Position numbers and translations under genes: made by a program
IMG/VR virus record: IMGVR_UViG_3300035698_035307
Location: 87,521 to 151,520 of that record
From: a virus
Taxonomy: Duplodnaviria > Heunggongvirae > Uroviricota > Caudoviricetes
Length of the DNA: 64,000 bases
Direction: 5' to 3' (one strand)
Part shown: in pieces, positions 8,723 through 61,598 of the stretch
Layout: the number at the start of each line of letters is the position of its first letter
Numbering within the stretch: the stretch's first letter is position 1
The notes under the pieces: model-generated
Databases searched by the model: none
What the model was told of the DNA's origin: nothing
What the model saw: the letters and a program-made list of their open reading frames with translations, nothing else

Positions 8723-8734
8723 ATTATATATCGC
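8723..8734 (-). promoter_or_regulatory. Candidate promoter element GCGATATATAAT on the minus strand, 29-40 nt upstream of the ATG at 8694.
   Basis: Member of a four-member motif family G(G/C)GATATATAA(T/C); the others are at 24139-24150, 32798-32809 and 49753-49764. Three of the four lie just downstream of terminator hairpins and 18-55 nt upstream of a start codon. Confidence 0.3.
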
Positions 8735-8744
8735 TGGGAATAAA

Positions 8745-8775
8745 CCTAAAAAAAGCTCAGACACGTCTGAGCTTC
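8745..8775 (-). terminator. Rho-independent terminator, minus strand.
   Basis: Perfect 9-bp stem agctcagac / gtctgagct (8754-8762 and 8765-8773) with a 2-nt loop. Plus-strand A-run 8746-8753 gives a U-tract after the hairpin on the minus strand. Lies immediately downstream of the 8794..12363 gene. Confidence 0.7.
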
Positions 8776-8793
8776 TAATAATGTATGAAAATC

Positions 8794-12363: not shown

Positions 12364-12375
12364 AGTTCTTTATTT

Positions 12376-14469: not shown

Positions 14470-14487
14470 AATTATTGTTTAAATTTT

Positions 14488-15114: not shown

Positions 15115-15141
15115 AATATTCTATTTTATTTAATTGTTAAT

Positions 15142-37132: not shown

Positions 37133-39979
37133 TTATACTTTTTTATACCAGCTTGATGACCAATTTATTGTAGTACCATCTATACCAGTTATTTCTATAT
37201 CTAATTCTCCTGCACTATTACCTTCAAATGTAACTGCAGTTGGTTCTAAACCACCTTGACTATCAACATCTGAACTTACAAATTCAACATGTATTACGCC
37301 ATCTAATTTTCGTACAACAAGTGTTCTTTCCCATGCTCCAAACTCAAGTGCTGTACTCGTTGGTGCAAGAGCTTTTATAAATACTTTATATACTGAGAGA
37401 TTATCATCTTCTATATTAATAATTGAATCTATTATCTCAGGTGTTGCATCAGTTGTTGTAGTTGTTTCTGTAGTTGATTTACTTACCCATTTTAAACCAG
37501 TTGCAGTACTCGAGTCAGCTGATAAAAGTTGGTCATCAGTACCGGCTGGTAATCTTGTATCGACTGTACTAAACGTATAGATATCACCTTTAGTTGTTAA
37601 TGGGCTTGAACTTCCACCATCAGCCCATTCTAAAGCTGTAGCGCCTGCATTTACTCTAAGTACTTGAAGACTTGTGCCGATTGAAAGTTTAGCTGCTGTA
37701 TCTAAACCAGTACCTACTGCTAAGTCACCAGCTGCATCCCAAATGGTATCAGTTGCAACATCTCCACCTGGAGCTGAAACAAATTGTACATCACCATCAG
37801 TATTTTCAATACGTAAATATTTACCAGTATTATCAACGCCATCATCTAACCTCAACGTAATATTTTTAGTAACTGCGTTTTCAACATGTGACCATAAGCC
37901 AATTTTAGTATCAGTGATACCAGTTCTTTTTAAGTTTGCAACGACACCAACTGCAGTACCTGAAGCTACAGAAGCTTCAAAAATACCTCCAATATTAGTA
38001 CCATATGTAGCTAAAGCACCTAAGCCATCTTGTCCATTTGAACATGATGCACCATAAATACCTGAATTATATGATTGGTTTGTTGCAGTTCCTTCTGCAC
38101 CTACGCCATATGCACTCGAACCGCTTGCATTTCCTTTTATTCCTTTATTAGAAAATGTAGAATCTCCTGCTGTACCTTTTACACCGATTGATGTACTACT
38201 TTCACTACCAAGACTTGCAGCACCTGCAATTCCGGCAAGACCTATATTCATTGATGTTCCGTTTTGAGCACTTGCTAAAATACCAGTAGTTACAGTATAT
38301 GCTAAATTTGCTGTTACTCTAATCATTGCATCAAACACAGTTGAAGTACCTCCAAGTGATATGAAAGTGCCACCGTCATATAATAATGACGAGCCAATAG
38401 TATCTGAATCAATCCACTTTGTAACATAATCTGCAGTACCAGAACCATCTGTCAGTGAAACTTGATTCCCATTATAGTCTAATAAACCTGCAGTATTTTC
38501 TGTTAACTTGCTAAGTACTGGAATATCTAAACTTTGGAAGTCAGTATATTCAGTAGCAGTTATATGATAATATTCATCAACTATACCACCTTGCAATCCA
38601 ATTAAATTATTATGGTCTGTTGCGCTCGGTGCAACACCTGTTAAAACATTATAATTATTATCTCTAACATCAACAATATCACTAATAGCTGCGTTACGTG
38701 CATTAGCTGGAGTTGAGTCTGCTTTAATAAGTAATATGTATAAAATCTTTAATTCAGCAAATGGTAATCCTGTTAATGATAAATTAGCAAAATTATCCAG
38801 AGCTGCATTTCTTGCGTTATTACGTGTAGTTTCATCGCTCTGACCTTGTATAATAAGTACAGGTTCGTTAACATCAGTTGTTGCTGCAACATAAACATAA
38901 GTCCAATCATTATTAGGTACTTGTACTTGTGTACCTACGCCTCCTGTAATTGAATTGTATGTTGGTCTAGTTCCATCCCATTTAATAGGATATTGTGTAG
39001 CTGTATCTTTCTTCCAAACTGTACCGTCTTTATAAAATATCGGAAGATAAGCAGCTTTAATACCACCTGTGTCTAATGCCAACCTTTGTTCAAAGTTAAC
39101 AGCAGGTGTATCACTTTCTACAATATCAACTTGAAGTTCTTCGTCAAAAATAGTACCTCCTGAAAGATATAATTGGATATCATCACTAGTTTGTCCACCC
39201 ATTGTACCGTCCATACCGTAATTAAATCCTGTATAGTATTTAGCACCTTCTGTAAGGTGTATCGCTAAGTGTAATGCTTGATTACGTTTAGCATAATGAC
39301 CTTCATATGCTACAATTGTTGCTAACTTTGTTACTGCAGTATCATCTAATTCAACGAATGCAATATAAGCTGCAGGTCCAGGGTTAGGAACTGCCTCATC
39401 ATGTCCAAATATTAAACCAGGTACATTAGCAGGGTCAGTAGTTTCTGTAAGTATGCCAGCTGAATTAAAATAAATAAAGTGAGGTCCAGTTGTATCTGAA
39501 ATAACGATTGATTTTGTAGTACTGACTGTAGTCATTTGACCTTCAAGCCAATAATCATAAGATGTACCTGTTGTTATTTCAAGAGTTCTTGTAGCTTCTG
39601 TATAAGATAATTGTATATCAGCTTCTGGTAAAGGTTCAAATCCAGTTCCTGTACCTAAACTATCTGGGTCAGAAAGATTCTCAAGTAAAGCAATTGGCTT
39701 CCAAGTATCAGTATAGAGTTGAAGGATATCATCATCATATTGTACCATTCCTGCTGTACCGCTTCCTGATACTGCTGCACTTATAGTAATAGCCTCCATA
39801 AGGTTTAACTGTGTGTTTATGTTCACGGCAGAATCCGTCAGTTGTATCAGATTAACTGTATTAAGAAGTATATTTCCATTACTTCCATCATAGTCTATCT
39901 GTATCTGATTAGAAGCATCTGTACCTATCTGGAGATTACTTTCTTTTCTTATTTCAAAATTGCTTAATTGTTCTGACAT
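37133..39979 (-). CDS. Tail fibre protein (948 aa).
   Basis: Ser/Thr/Gly/Ala-rich long ORF within the fibre gene cluster. Confidence 0.55.
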   Translation of the reverse strand: MSEQLSNFEIRKESNLQIGTDASNQIQIDYDGSNGNILLNTVNLIQLTDSAVNINTQLNLMEAITISAAVSGSGTAGMVQYDDDILQLYTDTWKPIALLENLSDPDSLGTGTGFEPLPEADIQLSYTEATRTLEITTGTSYDYWLEGQMTTVSTTKSIVISDTTGPHFIYFNSAGILTETTDPANVPGLIFGHDEAVPNPGPAAYIAFVELDDTAVTKLATIVAYEGHYAKRNQALHLAIHLTEGAKYYTGFNYGMDGTMGGQTSDDIQLYLSGGTIFDEELQVDIVESDTPAVNFEQRLALDTGGIKAAYLPIFYKDGTVWKKDTATQYPIKWDGTRPTYNSITGGVGTQVQVPNNDWTYVYVAATTDVNEPVLIIQGQSDETTRNNARNAALDNFANLSLTGLPFAELKILYILLIKADSTPANARNAAISDIVDVRDNNYNVLTGVAPSATDHNNLIGLQGGIVDEYYHITATEYTDFQSLDIPVLSKLTENTAGLLDYNGNQVSLTDGSGTADYVTKWIDSDTIGSSLLYDGGTFISLGGTSTVFDAMIRVTANLAYTVTTGILASAQNGTSMNIGLAGIAGAASLGSESSTSIGVKGTAGDSTFSNKGIKGNASGSSAYGVGAEGTATNQSYNSGIYGASCSNGQDGLGALATYGTNIGGIFEASVASGTAVGVVANLKRTGITDTKIGLWSHVENAVTKNITLRLDDGVDNTGKYLRIENTDGDVQFVSAPGGDVATDTIWDAAGDLAVGTGLDTAAKLSIGTSLQVLRVNAGATALEWADGGSSSPLTTKGDIYTFSTVDTRLPAGTDDQLLSADSSTATGLKWVSKSTTETTTTTDATPEIIDSIINIEDDNLSVYKVFIKALAPTSTALEFGAWERTLVVRKLDGVIHVEFVSSDVDSQGGLEPTAVTFEGNSAGELDIEITGIDGTTINWSSSWYKKV

Positions 39980-40010
39980 TTCTTAAGTCTTTATTTTATT
40001 GTTATATTAT

Positions 40011-43000
40011 TTATCCGATAATTACTACTCTATAGTCATCACCTATAGTTGTTGCTGCAGCAAATTTAACAGTTACTGAAGTAGTTGATGTTCTTTCAAC
40101 TGTAACACCTTTAGTATCATACGGTGAATTTGCATCGTAAACTTGTACAATAACGTCTCTTGTATCTAATGTATGGTTGATAACGTATGTTGCAACAGCA
40201 TCAGAACCTGTAATAGTTCCGACTTGCTTAAGAGCATTTCCTGTAGCATCTACTGCAACCCATTTATCATCAGCAGATGAGAATTGTAATATCTGACCGT
40301 CTGTAGGTTCTCCTGTATTTAAAAGCACATCAGTTAAGTCTGCAAGTGTTCCACCAAATAAATCACCTGTTAAAGCAATTGTTCCTTCAGCATCAGGAAA
40401 CCTAATAATTCTATCAGCTGTAAGTGCTACACTTTCATATTGTGCATAGAAACCGTTATTACGCATGAAAAAATTGTTAGCACCGTAACTTGACTTATCC
40501 ACAGAAGAACCTAATTCGTCTGTAAAAAGCAAACCTTCTTCAGGACTAAGCGTTACTCCCCAAGCTTCAGCAGGACTACGGAACACCAGATGAGTGTTAT
40601 ATAAATTATAATAATTATCAATGTCATTGTAAGAGATTGGAGCATTAACATCAATAACATCACTAAGGTTCATAACTACACCATCACCTGATTCTAACTT
40701 TATTTCACCATCCGCTTGTATATTAATATCACCATCATTATTTTCAATCCTTAGAATAGCCCCTAAACTTTTAATCAAGGAACTTGAATCTAGTACAATT
40801 GAGTTAGTACCCATGTAAATATTACCAGTCATTGTACCACCTGCTAAAGGTAAGTATACGCCAGAAGGGTCAATAATATCACTAAGTAAAGCTACTGTCC
40901 CTGTTGCATCTGGAAAAGTCCATGTTCTTTCAGCTGCAATAGTTGTCATCTTTATTATACCTTGTAAAGTGCTTGTGTTATTCTGTAGTTGTATATGCGA
41001 TTCAGTACCAGATGTCAATAGCTGTATTTTAGTTTTCTGTACACCATCATTAATAGTGAGACCATCTTGTGAAATTTTAGTGTATATACCTGCGTTATTT
41101 CCACCTTGAAGATTAATTTCAGTATCAGCTTTGATTACCATAGCACTTCCATATTCTACATCTATAGAATTACTAGCATTCCAGTATATTCTCCCTGCAT
41201 TAAAATTAGAACCATCTAAAATAAGGTCGTTAGCTTGCATGTCAATATCGCCTGCCATTGTACCACCTGCTAAAAGTAAATAAACTCCTGTTGGGTCAAT
41301 GATATCTGAAGTTAAAGCAATAGTACCAGTTACATCAGGGAAAGTCCAGGTTCTATTAGCTGTGAAAGTAGGAGCTGTTAATGCGCCATTATATAAACCT
41401 TGATTTAAGTGCACTTCAGCATCAAAATAATGTGAACCTTGTGATGTTATTCTCTGTGCACTTGCTAAAACTAACTCTTCATCAGTTGCATTTATTAAAA
41501 TACCTTTACCATTATTATTACTTTGAATCACAAGGTCTGTAGTACCTTCATAAATAGTCGACGTACCACCAAAGCCGATAAAATCACCATTAGTAATATA
41601 AATGGCTGTACCTCCTGTTGTATTACCTAAAGCTAAAACTTCAGCTAAAGTATCAGCAGCTTGAACATCACTTAAATAAGCTATTGTATTACCATCATAA
41701 TCTAAATGACCATCTGTAATCTCAGTAAATGTAGTAACCTCTGAAGTAAGTGCTAATGTACCTGCTTTATTATGAGGTAAATATACTATGTAACTAGTGT
41801 CTGTTAACGGGTTAATTGTTAATGATGTTTTTGCATCTGTAATATATGGTTCGTAAAACTCAATTACAGGAGTTTCACTTCTTAATGTAATTATACCACC
41901 GTCAAATTCAAAAGTATCTGATATTGTTAAAGTTCTACCGTCGCCTGATTGTATTTTAATACCACCTTCTCCGAATAATTGTAAATCGTTATCAGGTGTA
42001 CCAAGACCTATATAACTATCACCACCAGCAAATAGTATTCTATCTGTAGTTGTCATTTCAATATCATTACCCTCAGTTGAATTATCTACACTTAAAACTT
42101 GTTCAAGGCTAGGTGTTGCTGGCGCAAGACCATCTACGTATTCTTTATCTACTAAACTTCTGTTTGTATAGTTAGCTGAATAATCTGCAAAATATTCAAA
42201 ACCAGAACCTGCCGCTCTCCAATCTCTAAATACTGAATATCCATATGAATTAAATTGATATCCTGTCCCGATTTCAATATGTGTATTACCTGAACCTTGG
42301 ATATTTGTATAAGTACCCATACTGATACCGAAACCGGCTGAGTTATTAATATTAATTGTTTCAGCATTTAATTCAAATACACTTCCAACTGTAATACCTG
42401 TAAGACTTACAACTGTAAAGCTGCCACCTAATGTAATATTATCAAGAGTCTTAGTTAAACCATTGGATGCAGTAGTTGAATCTGTAATATCAGTTAAATA
42501 AGCTATTGTATTACCATCATATTCTAAATGACCGTCTGTGATTTCTGTAAATGTAGTTACGTCATCTAATAGAGCCAATGTACCATTTTTATCAGGAACT
42601 TGATAAGTCCTATCATATGTTAACGAATTATTATCTGCCCATACACTTCCTGTGAACCCAGATGTTAAATCTTTTGTTCCTAACCAAGCTGCTATAACTC
42701 CTGATGAAAAGAAAGCTTCACCACCATCGAAGAAATATTGCGAACCATCTAATGAAAAGTTTAAATTGTCACCACTATTAAATAAATCAATGTTCCAACC
42801 GCTTCTTCCCCAGTCATTAGTACCATTATAAATTCCATTTGATGTATCGAATATGATTGCGTCTCCGCTTGAGATTGCAATATCATAACCTCCTGTAGTA
42901 TTTCCTTGAGCTAATGTAGCGTTTAAACCTTCTGCTGGTATAACATCACTTAAATAAGCTATAGTTTCTCCAGTATTATCATAAACAATATGACCATCAG

Positions 43001-43580
43001 TAAGTTCTGTAAATCCAGCACCAACTAAATTATCTACATATGCTTTATCAACTAAACTTCTAGCTGTAAAGTTAGCTGAATAGTCGTTTTGATATGTAGC
43101 TCCAGCGAAACCTACATGTGTCCCTAAGATTCTAAATTCAATATCTGATATTAATAAACCATTAGCACCTGAAGCATCTGCATGTTGTAAAACTATAGAT
43201 GTTATTCCTGGGCCCATTGGTGTATTTAAACTAATTGTACTTCCAATTGTTGTTCCTATACCAAATGCAAAACCACCAGTATCTATAGTTGTCTGTTCAG
43301 TTAAAGAACCACCTAATTTAATATCATCAAGAGTCTTAGTTAAACCGTTAGAAGCTGTTGTAGCATCTATGACATCACTTAAATAAGCTATAGTCTCACC
43401 GTTATGACCTAAACGACCATCCGTAAGTTCGAATAAAAATTCAATTGGAGTTTCAAGTCCATTGTCATCAATTTTAGTTAAAATGCCTGCTGCATTAAAA
43501 TATAAGCTTCTGAATCCTAACGGAGTTGCGATAGGGTTGCTCAATAAGCTCTGGGCTCTTTGTGAATATTGTCTTTTCAT
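40011..43580 (-). CDS. Long tail fibre protein with repeated ...TDGHLEYDGNTIAYLSDV... modules (1189 aa).
   Basis: At least six copies of the motif (G)ETIAYL(S/T)D(V/I). Three copies of DYSANFTARSLVDKAYVD-like motifs are shared with the neighbouring 1424-aa gene. Confidence 0.6.
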   Translation of the reverse strand: MKRQYSQRAQSLLSNPIATPLGFRSLYFNAAGILTKIDDNGLETPIEFLFELTDGRLGHNGETIAYLSDVIDATTASNGLTKTLDDIKLGGSLTEQTTIDTGGFAFGIGTTIGSTISLNTPMGPGITSIVLQHADASGANGLLISDIEFRILGTHVGFAGATYQNDYSANFTARSLVDKAYVDNLVGAGFTELTDGHIVYDNTGETIAYLSDVIPAEGLNATLAQGNTTGGYDIAISSGDAIIFDTSNGIYNGTNDWGRSGWNIDLFNSGDNLNFSLDGSQYFFDGGEAFFSSGVIAAWLGTKDLTSGFTGSVWADNNSLTYDRTYQVPDKNGTLALLDDVTTFTEITDGHLEYDGNTIAYLTDITDSTTASNGLTKTLDNITLGGSFTVVSLTGITVGSVFELNAETININNSAGFGISMGTYTNIQGSGNTHIEIGTGYQFNSYGYSVFRDWRAAGSGFEYFADYSANYTNRSLVDKEYVDGLAPATPSLEQVLSVDNSTEGNDIEMTTTDRILFAGGDSYIGLGTPDNDLQLFGEGGIKIQSGDGRTLTISDTFEFDGGIITLRSETPVIEFYEPYITDAKTSLTINPLTDTSYIVYLPHNKAGTLALTSEVTTFTEITDGHLDYDGNTIAYLSDVQAADTLAEVLALGNTTGGTAIYITNGDFIGFGGTSTIYEGTTDLVIQSNNNGKGILINATDEELVLASAQRITSQGSHYFDAEVHLNQGLYNGALTAPTFTANRTWTFPDVTGTIALTSDIIDPTGVYLLLAGGTMAGDIDMQANDLILDGSNFNAGRIYWNASNSIDVEYGSAMVIKADTEINLQGGNNAGIYTKISQDGLTINDGVQKTKIQLLTSGTESHIQLQNNTSTLQGIIKMTTIAAERTWTFPDATGTVALLSDIIDPSGVYLPLAGGTMTGNIYMGTNSIVLDSSSLIKSLGAILRIENNDGDINIQADGEIKLESGDGVVMNLSDVIDVNAPISYNDIDNYYNLYNTHLVFRSPAEAWGVTLSPEEGLLFTDELGSSVDKSSYGANNFFMRNNGFYAQYESVALTADRIIRFPDAEGTIALTGDLFGGTLADLTDVLLNTGEPTDGQILQFSSADDKWVAVDATGNALKQVGTITGSDAVATYVINHTLDTRDVIVQVYDANSPYDTKGVTVERTSTTSVTVKFAAATTIGDDYRVVIIG

Positions 43581-43639
43581 TATATTTAAACATTTTATTT
43601 AATGTGCCAACCTATTGGCTTCGGTATTCTATATATCTG

Positions 43640-46600
43640 TTATCCAATTACAGTTACGGTAACTGCTCCGATTACTGCTGATGAATTAATTGTAATACTA
43701 TTGATTGATGTACGTACAATGTCAATATCAACTTCTGAGTCATCTGATTCATCCATAACTGATACTATAATTGCTTTAGTTCCTAAATTATGAGTTACTA
43801 CATTTGCACCGATTGATATTGCAAATCCTGTTACAGTATACTTATTAACGATATCGCTTAAGTAAGCTATTGTTTCGCCATTATATTCTAAATGACCATC
43901 TGTAATTTCAGTAATTCCTAAAGCTGATAAATCTAGCGTAGACCATTCTGCTAAACCATTACCATCTATATCTGTTAATACTTTTCCTATTCCGGTTGTC
44001 CTTCCATCGTCGAATTGGCCAATATAACTAGTTCCTGCACCTACGTTTCCAGTTATTACAGTTATACCAATATTGTTAGAACTATTAGATTGTTGTAATC
44101 TTGTATAAAAACCATAGTTAGGTGCTGATGTGTTTTCAGACATTGCAACTATACCATAACCTGCTCCACCAGAAACTGAAGGTAAACCATCTATTTGATT
44201 ATAACTACCTGTTCCAATTATACCGATATTCATATTAGTAGATTGGCCTGCTTGGCCAACTATACCCATATTTCTACCTGAATGTACTCCACTTGAATAT
44301 GAACGTATACCTGCAGAAACTGTTGTAAGTGTATTAACTGCATCTATAGCATAAGTTAATATATTTGTTGAAACCTTTAAAGTTGCAACTCCTGTTGCAG
44401 GTGCAGCTCCGATTCCTACGTTATCACCATCATCACGAATCATACCATATTCTAATGCATCTTCTCCTACATTAACTTTAAGAAGATAATCTGCATATCC
44501 AGTATAATCGTTTGGAGTATCTGTAAGTTCAGTAAATTCGTTTGCAGTTAAAACTGCGTTATCAACATATTCTTTATCAACTAAAGTCCTAGCTGTAAAG
44601 TTAGCAGAATAGTCATCTGCGTAATCTAGGCCTTTACTGTAAATATCATCTTTAAACACTTGACTTAAAGCAGTCTGTGAAAGATAAAGGCCTGCTTCTA
44701 CTCCTGAACTTACTTTAGTATAGATTTGGCCACCAGTATTGGCAATTAAAATACCAGTATTAGGGTACCCAGTTGAATTGTCTCTTTGTGCTATTGATAT
44801 TTGACCGCCGTTTAACCAAAACTCACTACGATCAGTACCGCTTATAGTTCTAAGTCTAACTAAGCCTGCCATATTATCTGCAGTAGCATCTACATTTAAA
44901 ACATCTTCCCATGAAGGTGTTGCAGGAACTACTGGTATATCTGTTAAATAAGCTATCGTATTACTATTGTATTCTAAATGACCATCTGTAATTTCAGTAA
45001 ATGTAGTTACGTCATCCAATAGAGCAAGTGTACCTGTTGCTGCTTGCATTGTTTGGAACCAAGGTCCTCCTGATGTAGGGAATAATATTGAAGCTGTATT
45101 AGAACTATCAGCTCTACGTATACTTCCTGTACCAAAATGCCATTGTACAGGTGCTGTTGTGATACTGTTAATAAGAACTATCTCAGAACCTGCTGTATTA
45201 AGTACTAAATTAGAACTTGATTGTGCAATGAAGCTTTGATTAGTAGCACCAAAGTATAATTGGTCAGTACCCATTTCAATATCTGTACCACCTGATGTGT
45301 TACCATTTGAAAGAACAGTAGCTAAAGTTGATATGCCACTATTTATAGATGGTTCCCATTTACCTGAAATACTATTATACTTAAGTACTTGGTCATTCTG
45401 TGGGTCACCTGTAGCAAACTGAACATCACTTAAGTCTTCTATAGATGCAGCTACATCTGAAAATTCAAGGGCAGTTTCACCTGCATTAACTCTTACGAAT
45501 TTAAGAGATTCTCCTGCATATGATGAAGGTGAATCAGTTAATGTTAAGAATGAAGTTACTGCAGAGTTAGTTGCAGGGGCCCAAAAACCACCTGATTGCC
45601 ATACAAGTACTTGACCTGTTGTAGGCGCAACTCCTGCGTTATAATCGTATACGTCTAATAGTTCGTATGCATAATCTTTAATCTGTGAAGCTAATGCAAA
45701 TGCAGGATAATCAAAAACTTTATCCCAATTTACATAACTTGCTACACCTGTTGAACCAAGTGCAGTCTGTGTATAATATAATGAATCTAAAGCACCACCA
45801 TCTAAATCAGCTTGTGAATATAAGCCAACATCAGATGCTATGCCATTAATCCAAAGTTGTGTTGCAAAATCAAAATATAATAAACTTTTATCTACTGGTG
45901 GTGAACCTGTTGTACTAACTTCAACATCAATAAGACTATTTAAACTTAAGTTGTTAGCAATTGCAAACAATTCATCAGCTGGTCTATTTCTCCAAGCTAA
46001 GTTAATACCATCCCATATAAGAACGTTAGGCATTATACCGTTTGTTCCAGGTGCTAATACACCGCCATTATTAAAATCTAATGGATTGACAAGTACATCT
46101 AACATATCTGAATTGACACGAAGTGTAACGTCTCCTGTTTTACCAGCTACTGTATTTACAGGTGCTGTAACATCTAATACGATATTGAATTTAGTACCTG
46201 AATCTACAATTGTGTAATCAACTACTGAATTTCCAGTTGCACCTTCTATGAAGTTTATAATATCTCTTTTGAATGCACTTACTGCTACACCACCTGCTTC
46301 CATGTTGATACCAGATTCTGCTAGAGAATTAAAAGTAACATCGTATCTATTATTCCCAATGTCTTCAGTAACAGTTATATCAATCTCAGTACCTTCAATG
46401 AAGTTTATAATTGGTTGGCTTGTTCCAATCTCAGTATTATTAAGACCTGCAGTTATCATCTGTCTAATAGAATCAGCAGTTTGAGCTATAGTAAATGTAC
46501 TACCTGCTCCTGCATCTGTAAAATTAATACCTAGTCCTGCTGTTATAGCACGTTCTGAACCTAGATAAGTATCGTTAGTTAATGTTAAGAATGTAGAATT

Positions 46601-47914
46601 AGCGATTGCCATTAAAGCATCACTTAAACCAACTACATCGGCAGATATTGAAATATAATCACTACCTGTTGTTTGGGCTATATCAAATACAAGAGTAGAT
46701 GTATCTACAAAATCAATATTTGAATAAGAACCTTGTAATAATGAATTGTCCCAAATAGTAACTTGTTGAATATTACTTCTATCGACAACTGATAGTGTCA
46801 TATTAGCTGTTGCGCCACCATCTGCTACATTAATTGTAGTATCACTTGAAAGAACTCTATAATTACTAAGAGGTGTTCCTACTGGTGTAACTGCTAATAA
46901 AAAAGGTTCATCATCAGGTACACCAGTTGGAGCTCCTGTAATGTTATTCCAATTTACTGATGCACCACCTGAGGTTTGTAAATTCGTTTGTGTATAATAT
47001 AATGAGTCATGGTTATGTTGTAATGGTGAACTAAGTCCTGTAGTAGAATTAGCTACTACACTTATATTAATCCAATTACTTCCATCAAATGTTAAGAATT
47101 GTCTAAGACTCGGTGCAGATATAGTAACATCAGTATGGTCGCCTAAAGCATGTGCACCAACAGAAGCTGATGAATTTTCCCATCTTTGAGTTCCTGAGTT
47201 ATATTGTAAAATGTCTTCATCTGCTAAAGATGAAATTAAAACATCTGAAATTTGAGTAATATTACTTAAAGAAGATGCTACATTAGAAATATAGTGTTGA
47301 TGTACGTCATAGTTACTTTTAAATGCAGCTAAATCGACACCATCAACTAAACCACCTACAGTAATAGAACCACTTATCCATGCTCCACCTTGTACCTGAA
47401 GCTTATCAGAACTCCAAGGTGTAGATGTACCAATTAAAACAGTGTCATTGTAATAAATTTCACTACCACCTGAAATTAATTGCCAAGGAGTTGCTACTCC
47501 AGAAATTACATCAATACGTGCAGTACTGCCTACCATCGTTACCTCAAGATTATTACCAAAGTCTAAAAGTATCGCAGCTGTTGGTAGTAAACCTGTATCA
47601 TCATCCTTGACAGCTACTTCACCTGTAAGTGATTGAGCACCAATTGGGTCCCATTTTGAAATATCAAATATGACACTTGGGTCATGGTTTACTGAAGCTC
47701 TCCACCATGATAATGCATATGCTGATGAGCCAGTTGCTACGCCAGTTACAGAAATATCTTCTTCTGCAATATAGACAATCATTCCTTCTTTGTACTTACG
47801 TAACGGCGACCACGAATTTGCAACGTATTGCTGGTTCTGGTCTAATTCTAAATGAGTTAATTCACTTAGTAATTCTGTACGCAATTTAAGTTTTTCTGGT
47901 AATATTATTGACAT
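43640..47914 (-). CDS. Long tail fibre protein (1424 aa), paralogous modules with 40011..43580.
   Basis: Contains FTEITDGHLEYNSNTIAYLTDIP, ITEITDGHLEYNGETIAYLSDIV and DYSANFTARTLVDKEYVDNAV, matching motifs in the preceding fibre. Confidence 0.6.
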   Translation of the reverse strand: MSIILPEKLKLRTELLSELTHLELDQNQQYVANSWSPLRKYKEGMIVYIAEEDISVTGVATGSSAYALSWWRASVNHDPSVIFDISKWDPIGAQSLTGEVAVKDDDTGLLPTAAILLDFGNNLEVTMVGSTARIDVISGVATPWQLISGGSEIYYNDTVLIGTSTPWSSDKLQVQGGAWISGSITVGGLVDGVDLAAFKSNYDVHQHYISNVASSLSNITQISDVLISSLADEDILQYNSGTQRWENSSASVGAHALGDHTDVTISAPSLRQFLTFDGSNWINISVVANSTTGLSSPLQHNHDSLYYTQTNLQTSGGASVNWNNITGAPTGVPDDEPFLLAVTPVGTPLSNYRVLSSDTTINVADGGATANMTLSVVDRSNIQQVTIWDNSLLQGSYSNIDFVDTSTLVFDIAQTTGSDYISISADVVGLSDALMAIANSTFLTLTNDTYLGSERAITAGLGINFTDAGAGSTFTIAQTADSIRQMITAGLNNTEIGTSQPIINFIEGTEIDITVTEDIGNNRYDVTFNSLAESGINMEAGGVAVSAFKRDIINFIEGATGNSVVDYTIVDSGTKFNIVLDVTAPVNTVAGKTGDVTLRVNSDMLDVLVNPLDFNNGGVLAPGTNGIMPNVLIWDGINLAWRNRPADELFAIANNLSLNSLIDVEVSTTGSPPVDKSLLYFDFATQLWINGIASDVGLYSQADLDGGALDSLYYTQTALGSTGVASYVNWDKVFDYPAFALASQIKDYAYELLDVYDYNAGVAPTTGQVLVWQSGGFWAPATNSAVTSFLTLTDSPSSYAGESLKFVRVNAGETALEFSDVAASIEDLSDVQFATGDPQNDQVLKYNSISGKWEPSINSGISTLATVLSNGNTSGGTDIEMGTDQLYFGATNQSFIAQSSSNLVLNTAGSEIVLINSITTAPVQWHFGTGSIRRADSSNTASILFPTSGGPWFQTMQAATGTLALLDDVTTFTEITDGHLEYNSNTIAYLTDIPVVPATPSWEDVLNVDATADNMAGLVRLRTISGTDRSEFWLNGGQISIAQRDNSTGYPNTGILIANTGGQIYTKVSSGVEAGLYLSQTALSQVFKDDIYSKGLDYADDYSANFTARTLVDKEYVDNAVLTANEFTELTDTPNDYTGYADYLLKVNVGEDALEYGMIRDDGDNVGIGAAPATGVATLKVSTNILTYAIDAVNTLTTVSAGIRSYSSGVHSGRNMGIVGQAGQSTNMNIGIIGTGSYNQIDGLPSVSGGAGYGIVAMSENTSAPNYGFYTRLQQSNSSNNIGITVITGNVGAGTSYIGQFDDGRTTGIGKVLTDIDGNGLAEWSTLDLSALGITEITDGHLEYNGETIAYLSDIVNKYTVTGFAISIGANVVTHNLGTKAIIVSVMDESDDSEVDIDIVRTSINSITINSSAVIGAVTVTVIG

Positions 47915-52905: not shown

Positions 52906-53363
52906 TAGTCTCCGAATTCGATTATTTTTGTTTTAAGGTCTCTTAATACGGCACACTTCTCATAATCTTCTACTTCAATAAAATAGTTCATTATTCTGTC
53001 TATCGCCATACTGCGATGTCCTTTTCCTTTAGGTACTTCTATGACAGTATCACCATCTTCAAATATAATAAAGATATCTACTGTACGTTCTTCATTTCGA
53101 GTTAATGAATCATAAGAAGCATTCATCAAGTAATTCATGTCATGCTTAGGTAATTCTTCCTCGTCCATAAAATCATCTTTTTTTAACTCTCCATCCAGTT
53201 GTTTAGCATAAACGTCTCTTAGAATTTCATTTATTCTTCTGGGTCTTCTTTTATTTTCCATTTTATAAAATTTAAGATGCTGAATCTCCGAACATCTTTT
53301 GTTTATATACTGCTTTAATTTTTTGCTTTCTTTTTTTAGCTGATGGCTTTGTGAACTTTTCAC
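52905..53363 (-). CDS. Hypothetical protein (152 aa as drawn; more likely starts at the internal Met, about 53261, to avoid a 92-nt overlap with the bS21 gene).
   Basis: The ORF overlaps 53272..53469 in another frame. The internal start MENKRRPRR... would reduce the overlap to 10 nt. Confidence 0.35.
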   Translation of the reverse strand: MKSSQSHQLKKESKKLKQYINKRCSEIQHLKFYKMENKRRPRRINEILRDVYAKQLDGELKKDDFMDEEELPKHDMNYLMNASYDSLTRNEERTVDIFIIFEDGDTVIEVPKGKGHRSMAIDRIMNYFIEVEDYEKCAVLRDLKTKIIEFGD

Positions 53364-53469
53364 GTTCTCTAAGTTCCTTTACTTGCTTAGTCTTAATAAC
53401 CTTACGTTTAAATTGCTTTAGAGCTCTTTCGAGACCACCTTTGCCAGGTTCTACTATAATTTTTAACAT
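53272..53469 (-). CDS. rpsU: Ribosomal protein bS21 homologue (65 aa).
   Basis: MLKIIVEPGKGGLERALKQFKRKVIKTKQVKELREREKFTKPSAKKRKQKIKAVYKQ follows the bS21 pattern (ALRRFKR...REREFYEKPSxxRKRK...A). Confidence 0.7.
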   Translation of the reverse strand: MLKIIVEPGKGGLERALKQFKRKVIKTKQVKELREREKFTKPSAKKRKQKIKAVYKQKMFGDSAS

Positions 53470-54279
53470 TTAATCTACTTTAATTTTTTTATTTACGTAT
53501 ACCCTTAGTCTATCTAAAGCTTTACGTTCCTTATCATCGAACTTATGCATAATTACATTTATCACGATATAAAAATCACCAAATCTTTTGGTACCGAATA
53601 TTGGCATGCCTTTGTTTGGTACTCTAAGTTTCTGTCCTTGTTTTGTTCCCTCTGGGATTTTAACCTTTAACTTACCTGCAAGTGTTTCTACTTCAACTTC
53701 TATTCCTAATAGACTATCATACAATGATATTTCTACATTATAGAGTAAATCATGATTAATATTTTTGTAAAGGGGATTGTTTAAAACAACGATATGTATA
53801 AATGCATCACCAGGTGCAGCCATTTCATTAATAGTACTCTTAAATCCTTTTCCGCGAGCTCTGAAATTATGACCACTGTGTGTACCAGGTTTAATATCCA
53901 ATGAAAGAGTTTCACCTGTCGGTAACATAAATTCCTTTCTACACCCAGAATAAGCTTCTTTTAATGTAATTGCAAGATTGACACGAATACTTTCACCTTG
54001 AACTGGAATTTCATATTCACCATAGAACTGATTCCAAACGTCATGCATATTAGTACCTGTATGCCTGAATGGGTTCGGGTTGTCGTATGCTGTTCGTTTT
54101 TCTTTATTACTTAATACATTATAAGCTTCAGATACTTCCTTAAATTTCTCCTCAGACTGTTTATTATCTGGATTTTTATCAGGGTGTAATTTCTTAGCTA
54201 GCTTACGATAAGACTTTTTAATCTCGTCATCAGTTGCTGTACGTTCAACTTCTAATATCTTATAATAATCTTTATTCAT
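53470..54279 (-). CDS. DnaJ/CbpA-like J-domain co-chaperone (269 aa, no zinc-finger domain).
   Basis: J-domain: [35 protein letters not shown] (HPD motif). DnaJ C-terminal beta-domains follow; there is no CxxCxGxG repeat. Confidence 0.8.
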
Positions 54280-56542: not shown

Positions 56543-56575
56543 AAAAAAAACCGGAACTGATGTAGTCCCGGTTTT
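56543..56575 (-). terminator. Terminator-like hairpin after the flotillin gene.
   Basis: A8 (56543-56550), stem ccgg...ccgg extended as aaaaccgg / ccggtttt with a 13-nt loop, then a T-run. Bidirectional in form. Confidence 0.5.
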
Positions 56576-56594: not shown

Positions 56595-58187
56595 CTACTT
56601 ATCATCTTTCTTTTCGATTTTAGCTTTGGCTTCTTCGATTACTTTCTTAGCATCGATTTTACCTTCTACATTACCTTTTTCAGCAAGCTTCGCTCTTTCA
56701 CCAGCACCTTGCATGAATTGTGGCATCTCAGCTCCAGCTTGTTCGAACATCTCTTTTAATGGTGGTACCATTCCAAGTAGTCCTTGCATGAAGCCAGCTG
56801 TTGATGTTTGACCATCTGAACCGCTTCCAGAACCTGAGTCCCAAACTGTTACTTTATCAATCTTCACATTCTTGATTGCTTCTACTTGAATCTTGATTAA
56901 TTCTGGTAATTTATCTGCAATCATTAATTGTACCGCTTTGTCACTTGAACCAGCTGCTTGTACTAATCTATCAAAACCGTCTGCTTGTTTTGTAAGTATC
57001 TCATTGATACCTTTCGCTTCTGCTTCCATCATCGCGAACTTAGCATCAGCCTTACCTTGTGCTACTCTACGGATTGCTTCTGCTTCTGCTTCTGCATTGA
57101 TTTCAATTTCTTCCTTAGCAATTTGTGCTGGGATTACAGTATCTGCATACTGTGAGGCTTTATCTTTCTTCGCTCTTTGCTTTTCAGCTTCTTCCTGGGC
57201 AATATAAGATTCTTTGTTAGCTTCTGCTTTCTTAACATTGAAAGCTGCAACTGATTTTCTTTCAGCTTCTGCTTCAGCTACTTTTCTTGTAGCAGTAGTA
57301 TTTGCAATTGCGACTTGTGAAGCATTTTCACCTTCAATCGCTGTAGCATTCATAGATGCTGTTGCAACTCTTTTTCTTTGTTCAGCATCTGCTTCACCAA
57401 TTTCTGATTTAGATATTGCTTCTGCAACTTGAACACGCTTGTCTTGGTCAGCTGCTGCTTCTCCAATTTCTGCTGTAGCATGAGCTGCTGCTACTTCAGT
57501 TCTCTGTGATTTCTCAGCTGTTGCAACTCCAATTGCACCACTTCTGTTTTTATCTGCAACAGATACTTTCGCTTCGTTGATAGCTGCGGCTGAAGCTTCC
57601 TTACCAAGAGCATCAATATAACCAGACTCATCTGTTATATCTGTGATGTTTACGTTGATAAGCTTTAAACCAATCTTCTGTAATTCATCTTCTAAGTTTT
57701 GTTGAATATTTAATAAGAACTTATCACGGTCAGCGTTAATTTCTTCAATATCCATTGTTGCAATTACAAGTCTCATTTGACCGAAGATGATATCTTTTGC
57801 TAGACCAGCAATATCAGTTCTTGAAAGGCCAAGTAGTCGTTCTGCAGCGCTTTCTCTTACACCTTCTGATGCAGATACTGCTACTGTAAATGTAGATGGT
57901 ACATCAATACGAATATTCTGTTTTGAAAGTGCATTCGTTAGATTTACATCAATTGCAATTGGTTTTAAATCAAGAAATTCATAATCTTGAATAACAGGCC
58001 AAATAAACTGTGCGCCACCATGAACTACTTTCGCGGTTGCTGTTTCTCCTGAAGCCTTCTTCCCGGTTTTACCGTAAATAACCATCAGTTTGTCCGAAGG
58101 ACATCGTTTGTATCGTTTTACCATCGCTACGATAAAGGCAAATGCTGCAACTACTGCAACTCCAATAATAATTAAATTGTACATCAT
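56595..58187 (-). CDS. Flotillin-like SPFH/Band-7 protein (530 aa).
   Basis: N-terminal TM helix, SPFH domain, then long Ala/Glu-rich flotillin repeats (AEAEAERK..., EINAEAEAEAIRRVAQGKADAKF) and a C-terminal tail, like bacterial YqiK/FloT. Confidence 0.8.
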   Translation of the reverse strand: MMYNLIIIGVAVVAAFAFIVAMVKRYKRCPSDKLMVIYGKTGKKASGETATAKVVHGGAQFIWPVIQDYEFLDLKPIAIDVNLTNALSKQNIRIDVPSTFTVAVSASEGVRESAAERLLGLSRTDIAGLAKDIIFGQMRLVIATMDIEEINADRDKFLLNIQQNLEDELQKIGLKLINVNITDITDESGYIDALGKEASAAAINEAKVSVADKNRSGAIGVATAEKSQRTEVAAAHATAEIGEAAADQDKRVQVAEAISKSEIGEADAEQRKRVATASMNATAIEGENASQVAIANTTATRKVAEAEAERKSVAAFNVKKAEANKESYIAQEEAEKQRAKKDKASQYADTVIPAQIAKEEIEINAEAEAEAIRRVAQGKADAKFAMMEAEAKGINEILTKQADGFDRLVQAAGSSDKAVQLMIADKLPELIKIQVEAIKNVKIDKVTVWDSGSGSGSDGQTSTAGFMQGLLGMVPPLKEMFEQAGAEMPQFMQGAGERAKLAEKGNVEGKIDAKKVIEEAKAKIEKKDDK

Positions 58188-58242
58188 TGTTTTTAAAAAA
58201 TTAAGTTAAATTAAACATTTATAAATATTACTACTAAAAATT

Positions 58243-58821
58243 CTACTTTTGTTTCACAACCATTAGATGACCTCTAATGTCTGTTACTTCTACTGTTGCA
58301 CCTCTTGGTATAAATCCAGTATCTGATATTACATCAACTTCTCGAATTGCTCCACCATTAAGTACATTAGCTTTTCCTTTTCCACCTTCTTGAACTGCAA
58401 GGGTAACAGTACCAGTCTTACCAACTGAATGAATTAGTTTGGGACTGCGGTCAACTGCAAGCTTTTTCATACCATACATCAACATCGTCATCATAACTAC
58501 CATACTTAAACCTGCTAAGGTTGCCCATAGAGTAGTATATCCTAAACCAACATCTTGATTAATACATGCAATTCCAGTCCAACTGAACATTACAAAGAAA
58601 TTCATTAAGTTCTTAAATGAGAACCAACCGAACGAAGCTCCTGCATCTCCTTGTGCATTATCTACGTCAGCATCAAAATCTGTATCTGTGTCTAAATCAC
58701 CGTCACTATCTAATCCTAAGAATATCATCATGAACTGTATCAAAAATACTAGCGATGTGGGTATCGCTATAAACCAAAGCACCTTTTCAAATCCTGTTAG
58801 TGCATCAAAAAATTCCATCAT
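58243..58821 (-). CDS. NfeD-like membrane protein (partner of SPFH proteins), 192 aa.
   Basis: Multiple TM segments plus a C-terminal OB-fold signature ...GKTGTVTLAVQEGGKGKANVLNGGAIREVDVISDTGFIPRGATVEVTDIRGHLMVV... Gene order NfeD then flotillin is as in bacterial yuaF-floT and yqiJ-yqiK. Confidence 0.65.
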   Translation of the reverse strand: MMEFFDALTGFEKVLWFIAIPTSLVFLIQFMMIFLGLDSDGDLDTDTDFDADVDNAQGDAGASFGWFSFKNLMNFFVMFSWTGIACINQDVGLGYTTLWATLAGLSMVVMMTMLMYGMKKLAVDRSPKLIHSVGKTGTVTLAVQEGGKGKANVLNGGAIREVDVISDTGFIPRGATVEVTDIRGHLMVVKQK

Positions 58822-58886
58822 TGTTTTATTGTTTTAAAGTTTCTAATTAAAAGTAATACTATTTCTCGCAAGGCCAAAGGGTTTTA

Positions 58887-59939
58887 CTAAAATTCCCCAT
58901 CAATTATGTTCAGAAAGTTTTCTCTAATCAGTAAAGCGTTATTTGAACCTACTTTCTTAGTTATAAACTTCTGTTCCTTTTTATCAAGCTTCATAAAATC
59001 TTCTCTGTTATCTTTCATAAAATCTTCGATAACATCTTTGTTCATATTACCCATAAGCATACCAAAATCCTTATCTGTAATAGTTCCAATCTTAGAGATA
59101 ACATTCTTCAGCCTATTCTCTGTCACATGACTGTCCATGATATCAAACAGCCTCTGAACCTCTTCAGAAACAATAACTTCCTCTTTTGGAACTCTATCTT
59201 TCTTAGGCTTCTTTGCAACTTCTGCAAATAGTTCATTCTTGTTCTTAAGAATAACTCTACTACCTGACCACATAAAATCTGGTTGTACAGGAATAATTAC
59301 ATTACCTTCACAGATATTCTCTACATCAATTTCTGGTAGACCTAATCTAGCAGGTATTGTAGACTTGTAAGCATTCTCATAAGCTAGACATTCTTCTAGC
59401 GTTCCTCTGAATAGAGGTTTCGTTCTAAATATATTACCAGCATCACATAATGTCGCGAATGTATCATAATCTACAAGTTCGCCATTGATTTTAATATCAA
59501 ATGCGTAAATATGATTATCAGGTGAGTAAAATACGCCTTTCTGACATCTTACTGCATGTGGACTTTTTGCTACTTCTGGATGGGGGTAAGAACCGCCAAA
59601 GATTTCACCATAAATTGTAAGTGTCTCAAGCTCAGGAGCTTCTTCTCCTTGTAGTGCAAGTTGATTACGCATAAGAGTAATAATATTCCAGATTTTTTCA
59701 ATGCCTGCTTTATTAGCTTCCATTACTACACCTGAATTATTAAATCCTTTCGGGTCATCAACAAAACCAGAACGCTTACCAGCTTTTAATTCATTACCAT
59801 CAAACCAAAGTGAAAAATTAGAGCCGTGTATTTTCTCGGTCACAACCCATTCGCCACCAGATTTACCTTGTTCTGCAATCTGATTTAGGAACTTAGTCCT
59901 ATAACTGTTTTCTATACTTGAAAATTTTGTAAATTCCAT
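58887..59939 (-). CDS. RNA ligase 2 (T4 Rnl2 family), 350 aa.
   Basis: N-terminus MEFTKFSSIENSYRTKFLNQIAEQGKSGGEWVVTEKIHGSNFSL is near-colinear with T4 Rnl2 MFKKYSSLENHYNSKF...GGEWVAREKIHGTNFSL (KxHG motif I). The C-terminal ...NVISKIGTITDKDFG... matches the Rnl2 C-domain. Confidence 0.85.
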   Translation of the reverse strand: MEFTKFSSIENSYRTKFLNQIAEQGKSGGEWVVTEKIHGSNFSLWFDGNELKAGKRSGFVDDPKGFNNSGVVMEANKAGIEKIWNIITLMRNQLALQGEEAPELETLTIYGEIFGGSYPHPEVAKSPHAVRCQKGVFYSPDNHIYAFDIKINGELVDYDTFATLCDAGNIFRTKPLFRGTLEECLAYENAYKSTIPARLGLPEIDVENICEGNVIIPVQPDFMWSGSRVILKNKNELFAEVAKKPKKDRVPKEEVIVSEEVQRLFDIMDSHVTENRLKNVISKIGTITDKDFGMLMGNMNKDVIEDFMKDNREDFMKLDKKEQKFITKKVGSNNALLIRENFLNIIDGEF

Positions 59940-60727
59940 TATATTTCAAAAAATTTAGATGTGCTATACTCTGGAGTTTCTCCATAACCTGCATAACCCA
60001 TTTGATTACTAACTACTTTTGTTCCATTTATTTCTGCATCAATATTCCTATGTGTATGACCATAAATCCAATGACTGATATCAAAATCGTGAATCCAATC
60101 AAAAAGTTCTACTACAAATCCAGCGTTAATTGGACTACCTTTAAAATCAGGATGATTAACCATCTGAGTAGGAGCATGATGCGTAACTACTACATTCTTT
60201 TCTCCTTTATGTTCTTCGAGTGCATCGTGCAAAAATCCTCTTGCTTCAAGGTGTAGTTTATTATACCTCATAGAGGTCAAAGGTTTTGGGTATTTTTGAT
60301 ACTCTTCCCAATACTTAATTACCCTGAAGTCGTTTAATCCTTTTGTGACATTCGTTATGTCATTATAATTACTCAAAGAAGACCACAGTGTAGTACAGAT
60401 AAAATTAACACCTTCAAATTTTACTATATCATTGTTAACTAACAATACATTTTCCCTAATCTTTTTATTGAGTTTAGGCTCTTTCAATAATTTATAATCT
60501 GCGTTATAATATTCATGGTTGCCAGGTATCATTATTACTAATTTCCACTTTTCAGAGAAATAATCAAAAATCTGGTCACTGTAATGTGAATCATTCATTT
60601 TTGTGATATCACCAGCAAGAACAAGTACATCACCGACAGGGATGATAGGATTATCTGATATCTCATCTCTGTTGGTGTACATTTCTAAATGTAAGTCTGA
60701 CGCGTATTGTATTTTTAATTTTGCCAT
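59939..60727 (-). CDS. Calcineurin-like metallophosphoesterase (262 aa); candidate 2',3'/3'-phosphate end-healing phosphatase.
   Basis: MPP motifs: SDLHLE (DxH), LAGDITK (GD), GNHEYY (GNHE), GHTHRN (GHxH). Confidence 0.75.
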   Translation of the reverse strand: MAKLKIQYASDLHLEMYTNRDEISDNPIIPVGDVLVLAGDITKMNDSHYSDQIFDYFSEKWKLVIMIPGNHEYYNADYKLLKEPKLNKKIRENVLLVNNDIVKFEGVNFICTTLWSSLSNYNDITNVTKGLNDFRVIKYWEEYQKYPKPLTSMRYNKLHLEARGFLHDALEEHKGEKNVVVTHHAPTQMVNHPDFKGSPINAGFVVELFDWIHDFDISHWIYGHTHRNIDAEINGTKVVSNQMGYAGYGETPEYSTSKFFEI

Positions 60728-60764
60728 AGTCTAATATACTAATTCTTTTTCAGAACCCAAAGTT

Positions 60765-61598
60765 TTAGGGCATTAAATTTAATAAAAAGTCTCTATCTTG
60801 AGATATGATAGGAATATCTACTGTTTCCCAAGCTGAACGTGTTATGCCAGTTGCTCTTGCAGAAATATCACCAGATGACATCATATCATAACTCTGTACA
60901 ACAACGTTGTCAACTCTTGTAATCTTCTTCACAAAACCACCACGTTTGAAACGTATTGGCTCATCATTCCAGTTAATTTTCTTTTCAAGCATTAACATAT
61001 CCTGCATGTCATTTGTCTTCTTGCCGTGTAATTCATTTTGGCTGAAGTACGCTTGAGCTAACATACTAATACTATTCCTTGTTGCATCTTGTTGTCTCCA
61101 AAGAAAATAGTTTACAACTTCTTCTTGGTTTGGAATTACAAATACTCTTGCATCAAATTCCGCAACTCTCATTGTACTTAATACTTTTGAGATATCAGTA
61201 CCGGGTTCTTGATTCCCTATAGCTCTAATATAGCGTAGTTGATTAAACTTACTCGTTGCCATAGAAGCAGCTACTGATACCATCTTTTGGATTTTATTAC
61301 CAAACCAAGCATCTGTCTCTAGCTTATCGTAGTCTGTTAATAGAAGTGATATTTCATCACTCTGAACATAACCACATTTACAGCCCTGAATATTCTTACA
61401 AAGATATTGAGTTGTTGCATCCATGTCATCATTTAATCCAGTATCATACGGTTTTTTAAGGCCACGAGTGTACGTGTGAAATGCCTTACCGTCAAGTCTG
61501 ATGATAATGTTTGTTCTGCGGGGCATAGTATGGTTAAATATACCTTCATAGAATGTTTTCATTCTGTCCCCTAAAGCGTCTTTTACTTTTTTTGCCAT
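60765..61598 (-). CDS. Thg1-like protein (tRNA-His guanylyltransferase family; 3'-5' nucleotidyltransferase), 277 aa.
   Basis: ...DRMKTFYEG...NIIIRLDGKAFHTYTRGLKKPYD...GYVQSDEISLLL...KMVSVAASMATSKF...FDARVFVIPNQEEVVNYFLWRQQD... is colinear with the Thg1 signatures VVVRLDGRNFHRF...KPND, GQSDEYSFVF, FDGRVVVYPS...YLSWRQAD. Confidence 0.7.
   Translation of the reverse strand: MAKKVKDALGDRMKTFYEGIFNHTMPRRTNIIIRLDGKAFHTYTRGLKKPYDTGLNDDMDATTQYLCKNIQGCKCGYVQSDEISLLLTDYDKLETDAWFGNKIQKMVSVAASMATSKFNQLRYIRAIGNQEPGTDISKVLSTMRVAEFDARVFVIPNQEEVVNYFLWRQQDATRNSISMLAQAYFSQNELHGKKTNDMQDMLMLEKKINWNDEPIRFKRGGFVKKITRVDNVVVQSYDMMSSGDISARATGITRSAWETVDIPIISQDRDFLLNLMP

Follow-up and report, generated by a model that had tools for sequence, protein, structure and literature searches.

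Bacterial flotillins are widespread, and their function is disputed: scaffolding, membrane fluidity and stress have all been proposed, and single mutants show weak phenotypes. In Bacillus subtilis, NfeD2 is drawn by the flotillin FloT into a shared assembly, whose components migrate together (PMC4928834), and the yuaFGI operon that encodes both is a member of the sigma-W envelope-stress regulon (PMC2636767). SPFH2 and NfeD2 have co-evolved and been co-transferred (PMC2636767), and the SPFH complexes whose structures have been solved are closed cages, each confining a patch of membrane (PMC12478178). Here, we describe an NfeD2-flotillin gene pair carried by a phage, within a 64,000-nucleotide (nt) stretch of IMG/VR virus record IMGVR_UViG_3300035698_035307 (record positions 87,521 to 151,520; the whole stretch is referred to as the window). 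The SPFH2/NfeD2 operon is of a known kind; its viral setting is unusual and so far undiscussed.

The pair consists of two open reading frames (ORFs), encoding 192 and 530 amino acids (aa), which lie where a preliminary description of this DNA had placed them and contain the peptides and Glu-Ala (EA) repeats quoted there. The locus is laid out as follows:

58243-58821, minus strand: NfeD2-type partner gene, 192 aa (191 aa by another gene caller, from the second ATG)
58188-58242, minus strand: intergenic spacer between partner and flotillin genes, 55 nt, AT-rich, sequence read directly
56595-58187, minus strand: flotillin (SPFH2) gene, 530 aa, assigned by Pfam Band_7 and Flot, PDB profile and Foldseek
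56543-56575, minus strand: intrinsic terminator ending the transcription unit, with a 12-bp stem (5 GC), a 5-nt loop and a T-run

The two genes have the start context AAAACAATGATG in common, and a terminator scan of the 55-nt spacer between them returned no terminator-like site. The strong intrinsic terminator 20 nt past the flotillin stop codon, whose stem, loop and T-run lie at 56575-56547, bears out the operon boundary proposed previously; an equivalent one, with a similar stem core, follows the orthologous flotillin gene of a related phage (contig L003, 9609-9631). Because the spacer toward the RNA ligase gene (58822-58886) likewise contains no terminator, a longer transcription unit may end with partner and flotillin. 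A sigma-70 promoter scan was uninformative (11 matches versus 14.0 in shuffled sequence), and a candidate Bacteroidota-type -33/-7 motif 5' of the partner gene was recognised by eye only.

The 530-aa protein is a flotillin of the SPFH2 class, from a Bacteroidota-like SPFH2 branch. Band_7 scored 93.7 bits against a cutoff of 23.6 (E=1.8e-26), which places the protein in the SPFH/Band-7 superfamily, and the Flot domain passed marginally (27.2 bits against 27). When the flotillin and its close relatives were compared with the PDB as a profile, human flotillin-1 was matched with E=5e-28 over ~330 residues (flotillin-1 residues 23-348) and flotillin-2 with E=2.4e-24, whereas QmcA and stomatins reached only ~1e-5. 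Likewise, the top four Foldseek matches of the monomer model were flotillin cage chains. At least 8000 homologues were found. In the AlphaFold2 (AF2) monomer model, a hydrophobic helix at the N terminus is followed by an alpha/beta SPFH core and by two ~110-residue helices. The helix region is rich in Ala (25%) and Glu (13%), with AEAEAE at aa 304 and 365, and this long coiled coil with EA repeats, preceded by an N-terminal anchor, is the architecture of the flotillin subfamily. Directly after the anchor stands an RYKRCPSD motif, in which R25, Y26 and R28-D32 are invariant and K27 is kept in at least 90% of sequences (alignment A3). The elements of the flotillin are:

58107-58184, minus strand: N-terminal membrane anchor, aa 2-27 (single hydropathy peak at aa 10-17; AF2 helix 2-27)
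57549-58088, minus strand: SPFH/Band-7 domain, aa 34-213 (PF01145)
56952-57629, minus strand: two very long Ala/Glu-rich helices, aa 187-294 and 299-412 (DSSP of the AF2 model; coiled-coil region)
56796-57086, minus strand: Pfam Flot C-terminal domain, aa 368-464 (PF15975)

The partner missed the threshold of the Pfam NfeD C-terminal domain (22.6 bits against 29.1, E=1.2e-4), similar sub-threshold matches occurred in 12 of 29 partner-family members, and the protein had no PHROG, NCBIfam or PADLOC match. As sequence-level family matches were insufficient, its fold was modelled with AF2 on 60 homologues. The model is confident (predicted local distance difference test score, pLDDT, of 85) and comprises three long helices (aa 10-34, 69-88 and 93-124) and a five-strand beta-domain (aa 136-191) with the NfeD-type C-terminal beta-barrel fold. 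In NfeD2 proteins, three hydrophobic helices at the N terminus lead into a short hydrophilic linker (PMC2636767), an architecture that the partner matches, and the gene position also agrees with that class: the partner lies directly upstream of the SPFH gene, co-oriented and separated by 55 nt. Since the Pfam threshold was missed by sequence, NfeD membership rests on fold, architecture and operon. The elements of the partner are:

58720-58794, minus strand: transmembrane (TM) helix 1, aa 10-34 (AF2 helix, hydropathy peak)
58618-58719, minus strand: Asp-rich loop, aa 35-68 (10 D/E, 0 K/R; alternating D-x-D-x-D)
58450-58617, minus strand: TM helices 2 and 3, aa 69-88 and 93-124 (AF2; F..F.W.G motif, then a K/R-rich linker)
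58246-58425, minus strand: C-terminal NfeD-type (OB-like) five-strand beta domain, aa 133-192

With these data, we regard the identity of both proteins as practically certain. The profile searches suggested in the preliminary description clearly supported its SPFH-domain flotillin; its multi-TM protein with an NfeD OB-fold stands by the three-helix architecture and the modelled fold and fell short of the sequence threshold.

Within the partner family, F75, F79, W81 and G83 are nearly invariant and G104 is invariant. The alternating D-x-D-x-D loop between TM1 and TM2, which has almost no basic residues, is a hallmark of the whole family, viral and bacterial, and may bind divalent cations; in the model it is disordered (pLDDT <50 for aa 41-61). 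The idea that phage partners carry longer, more acidic loops was rejected (Mann-Whitney p=0.28), and a lower His content (p=0.02 uncorrected, n=8) was too weak for use. PDB profile matches to 'Bagel' and to cell-surface repeat proteins were dismissed as repeat artefacts arising from a 25-residue stretch. Four K/R residues follow TM3 (aa 119-134) and KRYKR follows the flotillin anchor; by the positive-inside rule, the partner's OB domain and the flotillin's SPFH domain are therefore both predicted to be cytoplasmic. The phage pair also draws attention to a large NfeD2-type family of at least 7,382 clusters at 50% identity (counted at E≤1e-3; 1,739 at E≤1e-30), which is labelled 'hypothetical' everywhere, with no precomputed Pfam domain and no NCBIfam name.

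Gene order points to the two genes forming one module. A partner homologue lay directly upstream of the flotillin gene in 85 of 87 mostly bacterial loci (median gap 28 nt), the exceptions being Vibrio phage KIT04 and one contig without upstream sequence. These statistics are the sole use made of the genome-contig scan, which searched exact peptide patterns and was biased to Clostridia and Verrucomicrobiota at 45-54% identity; it did not serve the choice of nearest relatives. All 29 IMG/VR loci, retrieved by a scan with the phage-clade alignment, also had the partner upstream on the same strand, a small gene being inserted between the two in a few (a single-sequence IMG/VR scan had returned none, a limit of that method). 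By analogy with the described SPFH systems, flotillin and partner quite probably form a joint cage-type assembly.

The window is, judging from its genes, a fragment of a jumbo phage, with Bacteroidota as the most likely host phylum, because it contains phage genes together with an ORF common to large phages. That ORF (8794-12363, minus strand, 1189 aa) recurs in jumbo and mega phages of 168-735 kb: it is 43% identical to its counterpart in an uncultured 462-kb phage and is also present in Tenacibaculum phages PTm1, PTm5 and pT24, Chryseobacterium phages MA9V-1 and MA9V-2, Flavobacterium phage MaF61, Sphingomonas phage PAU and Prevotella megaphages (Lak-type). The window further encodes a baseplate wedge protein (phrog_219, E=1.9e-24) and giant ORFs matching phrog_29329 (E=1.5e-161), phrog_31887 and phrog_28177, which are jumbo-phage-specific. 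Together with T4-type RNA ligase 2 (Rnl2) and Thg1, these genes uphold the earlier designation of the pair as phage-borne. A metallophosphoesterase, a NUDIX protein, DnaJ and an NAD-dependent ligase are likewise encoded. The minus strand carries all 39 ORFs of at least 150 aa; the GC skew stays negative along the whole window, and the GC content is ~0.33. The 64 kb yielded no tRNA gene, and no major capsid, portal or terminase protein was identified among the window ORFs scanned.

We then asked where the flotillin belongs among its relatives. Many Bacteroidota chromosomal copies are 57-62% identical to it, and a set of nearer relatives is 66-79% identical. Neighbour-joining of 141 flotillin sequences placed the window copy in clade A (18 sequences, 59% bootstrap), paired with P0002 at 96%. 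Clade B (13 sequences, 74% bootstrap) includes two IMG/VR contigs, and clade C (100% bootstrap) comprises long flotillins of 626-699 aa, among them that of phage csAssE-Sib. All nine contexts sampled from clades A and B were phage-like (seven clearly, two probably; contigs of 17-425 kb), with T4-type prohead protease and portal, Rnl1, Rnl2, Thg1, NAPRTase and thymidine kinase genes amid long one-strand runs of small unannotated ORFs, and the two contexts sampled outside these clades were chromosomal. Mean identity was 68% within each viral clade, 55-57% between viral and Bacteroidota sequences and 71% among those Bacteroidota. A single acquisition uniting clades A and B was unsupported (17.5% bootstrap). 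The phylogenetic test for recent host origin proposed in the preliminary description thus came out negative, and the flotillin is, by its tree position, a member of an old, diversified viral clade.

Synteny adds to this picture. The order NfeD2-flotillin-NUDIX-DnaJ-PhoH-LigA is kept in two clade A phages whose flotillins are 79% and 66% identical to that of the window, and flotillin is the most conserved of 18 genes shared in synteny with L003 (79%; others 32-76%), ahead of PhoH (76%), Thg1 (73%), Rnl2 (72%), LigA (67%) and the partner (53%). An identical locus is present in independent metagenomes. Phage-context relatives, kept synteny, flotillin conservation and recurrence of the locus argue for long retention in phages under purifying selection and against a recent passenger. 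The alternative, that the pair is a neutral passenger recently captured from the host or that the region is bacterial rather than phage, could draw on the ~60% identity to many Bacteroidota flotillins and on the occasional binning of phage contigs in metagenome-assembled genomes (L003 comes from a GCA assembly). It is largely refuted and very improbable: the closest relatives (66-79%) all stand in phage contexts, no bacterial copy exceeds ~62% identity, flotillin is the best-kept gene of the syntenic block, and the pair has phage genes to either side throughout the 64 kb, every one on the same strand. Conversely, a selected function in the phage is highly probable.

What might that function be? 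The best overall explanation, in which we place moderate confidence, is a co-transcribed membrane-complex module to which we infer a role in membrane maintenance. The two genes would be co-transcribed to yield one membrane complex. The NfeD2-type protein would span the host cytoplasmic membrane three times, with its Asp-rich loop and with its small beta-barrel domain directed to the cytoplasm, and the flotillin would be anchored through a single hydrophobic helix at its N terminus. If the flotillin behaves like the SPFH assemblies of solved structure, its long Ala/Glu-rich helices would mediate oligomerisation, and the resulting dome or cage, located at the cytoplasmic face, would enclose a membrane patch and recruit the NfeD2 partner. 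The module would be of bacterial origin, its nearest cellular copies today being found in Bacteroidota, the likely host phylum, and would since have been inherited, under purifying selection, along a lineage that comprises large and jumbo phages. Its auxiliary task would be to preserve the order, fluidity and integrity of the infected cell's membrane during a prolonged infection, at a stage when the host has lost the ability to induce envelope-stress responses. This specific role, membrane maintenance, is tentative, though it takes the largest single share among the alternatives; we favour it because the bacterial counterpart sits in an envelope-stress regulon (PMC2636767).

Several points weigh against this explanation. 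Vibrio phage KIT04, which is T5-like, encodes a 473-aa flotillin (locus L001, 4689-6359) with no detectable NfeD2 partner within 5 kb, the ORF upstream being an 82-aa protein that is not a partner homologue, so the pair is not obligatory. Deletion of nfeD2 in B. subtilis gave no phenotype (PMC4928834), and the role is inferred from context and from bacterial flotillin biology that is itself unsettled. The flotillin monomer model has low confidence (pLDDT 62). Clades A and B have moderate bootstrap support (59% and 74%), their sisterhood received only 17.5%, so that one or several acquisitions are possible, and some IMG/VR contigs as well as loci L121 and L127 are only probably viral.

In the loci examined, the pair always lies in an auxiliary region of RNA-repair, nucleotide and NAD-salvage genes and never adjoins lysis or virion genes. 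This bears on the idea that the pair scaffolds some membrane-located phage activity, be it replication, virion assembly, lysis timing or a phage-induced compartment. Flotillins have been proposed as scaffolds of membrane-protein complexes (PMC5718613, PMC4409396), and eukaryotic flotillin cages cap membrane patches (9bq2, 9l3g); the pair, however, never adjoins lysis, capsid or tail genes, and no phage client protein co-varies with it, so we consider such a scaffold improbable.

In the window, the genes directly upstream of the pair form a compact RNA-repair cassette:

58887-61598, minus strand: RNA-repair cassette directly upstream of the pair (Thg1, phosphoesterase, Rnl2)
60765-61598, minus strand: Thg1-like tRNA-His guanylyltransferase
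59939-60727, minus strand: calcineurin-like phosphoesterase
58887-59939, minus strand: T4-type RNA ligase 2 (Rnl2)

Thg1 recurs near the pair in clades A, B (L090) and C (L109). Such neighbours raise the question of counter-defence, in which a cage would shield the membrane from abortive-infection effectors (pore-formers, phospholipases, premature depolarisation) or would sequester or modulate a host membrane protease such as FtsH; in the protease variant, FtsH modulation of the kind exerted by HflK/C and QmcA would stabilise phage proteins. The pair does lie among genes typical of counter-defence islands, with Thg1, phosphoesterase and Rnl2 directly upstream and, in clade B, NAPRTase and nucleoside deoxyribosyltransferase genes downstream, and the SPFH proteins HflK/C and YbbK (QmcA) interact with FtsH (PMC2636767). 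This is guilt by association, however, as the same neighbours fit a generic auxiliary-gene region equally well; colocalisation of FloT and FtsH is rare in B. subtilis (PMC4928834), and no known anti-defence family matches. We therefore hold counter-defence to be unlikely.

The pair itself is no known defence system: neither protein matched any of the 5027 PADLOC-DB defence-system models at E≤0.01. The same search speaks against superinfection exclusion or inter-phage competition, whereby an altered membrane would block DNA entry of other phages. Many phage exclusion proteins are small inner-membrane proteins, and the two genes, whose region is of early or auxiliary type, do encode membrane proteins; nevertheless, a scaffold of 530 aa that forms cages is unlike known exclusion proteins, and its very high conservation is atypical of fast-evolving exclusion genes, leaving little probability for this reading.

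A bolder version of the membrane-complex module, which we consider rather doubtful, is that large phages domesticated the flotillin-NfeD2 cage as a dedicated viral membrane device, which could serve either as armour against abortive-infection effectors or premature lysis or as the organiser of a virus-specific membrane domain. If true, the phage version would offer the clear phenotype that bacterial flotillin research lacks. The pair appears to be kept under stronger constraint than the phage's own ligases and RNA-repair enzymes, and such constraint implies that it confers a strong benefit tied to particular conditions. As one clearly delimited condition, infection is a setting in which to seek that benefit and could thus give an experimental handle on flotillin function; a membrane-organisation class would also be added to the known auxiliary genes of jumbo phages.

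Several further genes of the window and of related loci merit mention. Downstream of the flotillin, a DnaJ co-chaperone (53470-54279, minus strand; J domain E=2.6e-28, C-terminal domain E=1.8e-35) is kept in L003 and L126. Gene content between L003 and the window differs at two places: L003 carries a GIY-YIG/NUMOD3 homing endonuclease gene between phosphoesterase and Rnl2 (5467-6300), which the window lacks at 59939, and genes for ribosomal protein S21, a NUMOD3 endonuclease and UvdE after DnaJ (12926-14719), which it lacks at 53363-53470. As both insert blocks are missing from the window, these differences resemble indels associated with homing endonucleases. In clade B (L090, 11208-13301, and the P0105 locus), NAPRTase-family and nucleoside 2-deoxyribosyltransferase genes follow the flotillin gene directly or past one small ORF; this is a NAD/nucleotide-salvage pair of the kind linked to counter-defence.

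Farther away, a patatin-like phospholipase (32937-33851, minus strand, 304 aa; Pfam Patatin E=2.9e-26) stands among large unannotated ORFs and constitutes a second membrane-acting gene of the same phage genome; at the bacterial locus L122, a 751-aa patatin gene adjoins the flotillin gene on the opposite strand. In csAssE-Sib (L002), an acyl carrier protein gene (4170-4421) overlaps the start of the NfeD2-type gene. Any connection with lipid genes was nonetheless rejected: other viral loci show neither this carrier protein nor the window's patatin in the vicinity of the pair, except for one weak carrier-protein match in L119. The window also encodes an S1 RNA-binding-domain protein (22859-24100, minus strand; E=1.2e-25, two S1 stretches), and an S1-domain protein lies near the flotillin pair of L088. 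A putative amidoligase is found at 21457-22773 (minus strand; Amidoligase_2 E=5.5e-6). The giant ORFs, at 3679-18159 and 37133-47914 (minus strand), encode 1671, 1189, 697, 1005, 948, 1189 and 1424 aa and are mostly without known function.

Phage-borne flotillins have left little trace in databases and literature. A relative was present in only 9 of 50,697 GenBank phage records, including two complete genomes, those of KIT04 and csAssE-Sib, in which a 'flotillin family protein' is annotated with no further remark. PHROGs held no family for either protein of the pair; the gene is therefore absent or rare in that reference phage set, which says nothing against the domains. No publication on a flotillin or NfeD encoded by a phage came up in full-text literature searches, and the literature searched contained no discussion of the KIT04 or csAssE-Sib flotillin gene. 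An SPFH gene is touched on briefly in two phage genome papers, one of which calls its purpose unclear, and a broad comparative jumbo-phage survey and a 2026 review leave SPFH unmentioned. The phage Perkons paper was discarded as a precedent, since it concerns integration into host floA and not a phage-borne flotillin.

How, then, does the phage pair compare with known systems? Among solved structures, the human flotillin-1/2 cages (9bq2, 9l3g) are the closest structural matches of the phage flotillin, whose own cage is proposed by analogy only. The cages of E. coli QmcA-YbbJ (8z5g) and of HflK/C-FtsH (7wi3, 7vhq) have also been solved; QmcA, stomatin and HflK/C are much more distant (E ~1e-5 or worse). 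E. coli yqiJ-yqiK likewise places a gene for an OB-fold membrane protein ahead of a flotillin-type SPFH gene, YqiK being 25% identical to the phage flotillin. As the closest model, it was rejected: hhalign of YqiJ against the partner gave 0.1% probability, and the Pfam domains YqiJ_N and YqiJ_OB (DUF1449), which score 58 and 54 bits in YqiJ, were found neither in the window partner nor in four relatives.

Among phages, KIT04 (LC487410) encodes a flotillin of 32% identity without detectable partner. That of csAssE-Sib (OR575929) is 43% identical and belongs to the separate clade C of long flotillins; the 164-aa 'transmembrane protein' encoded upstream is a partner homologue (E=1.3e-6).

B. subtilis yuaF(nfeD2)-floT(yuaG), of the SPFH2/NfeD2 class (Hinderhofer et al. 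2009, PMC2636767), has the same gene order as the phage pair. To this extent, the yuaF-floT arrangement named in the preliminary description holds; orthology to FloT does not, since the phage flotillin scored 173.2 bits with NCBIfam NF058507 against an equivalog cutoff of 700 and is a relative only. By sequence, the phage partner profile found YuaF only at E=0.06. Unlike the yuaFGI operon, the phage locus lacks a yuaI-like third gene, and it is phage-encoded, whereas the B. subtilis operon belongs to the sigma-W stress regulon.

The nearest cellular relatives are chromosomal pairs of Bacteroidota (for example L091, on a 4.2-Mb chromosome, and L122), whose flotillins are 57-62% identical to that of the phage. 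Directly upstream, at a gap of 18 nt, they too have a ~190-aa partner homologue (E=7.6e-61 to the family hidden Markov model), likewise unannotated. Their neighbours are housekeeping genes (LGT, thioredoxin, type IX secretion system (T9SS) cargo), and the window flotillin groups with the phage copies, not with these chromosomal ones.

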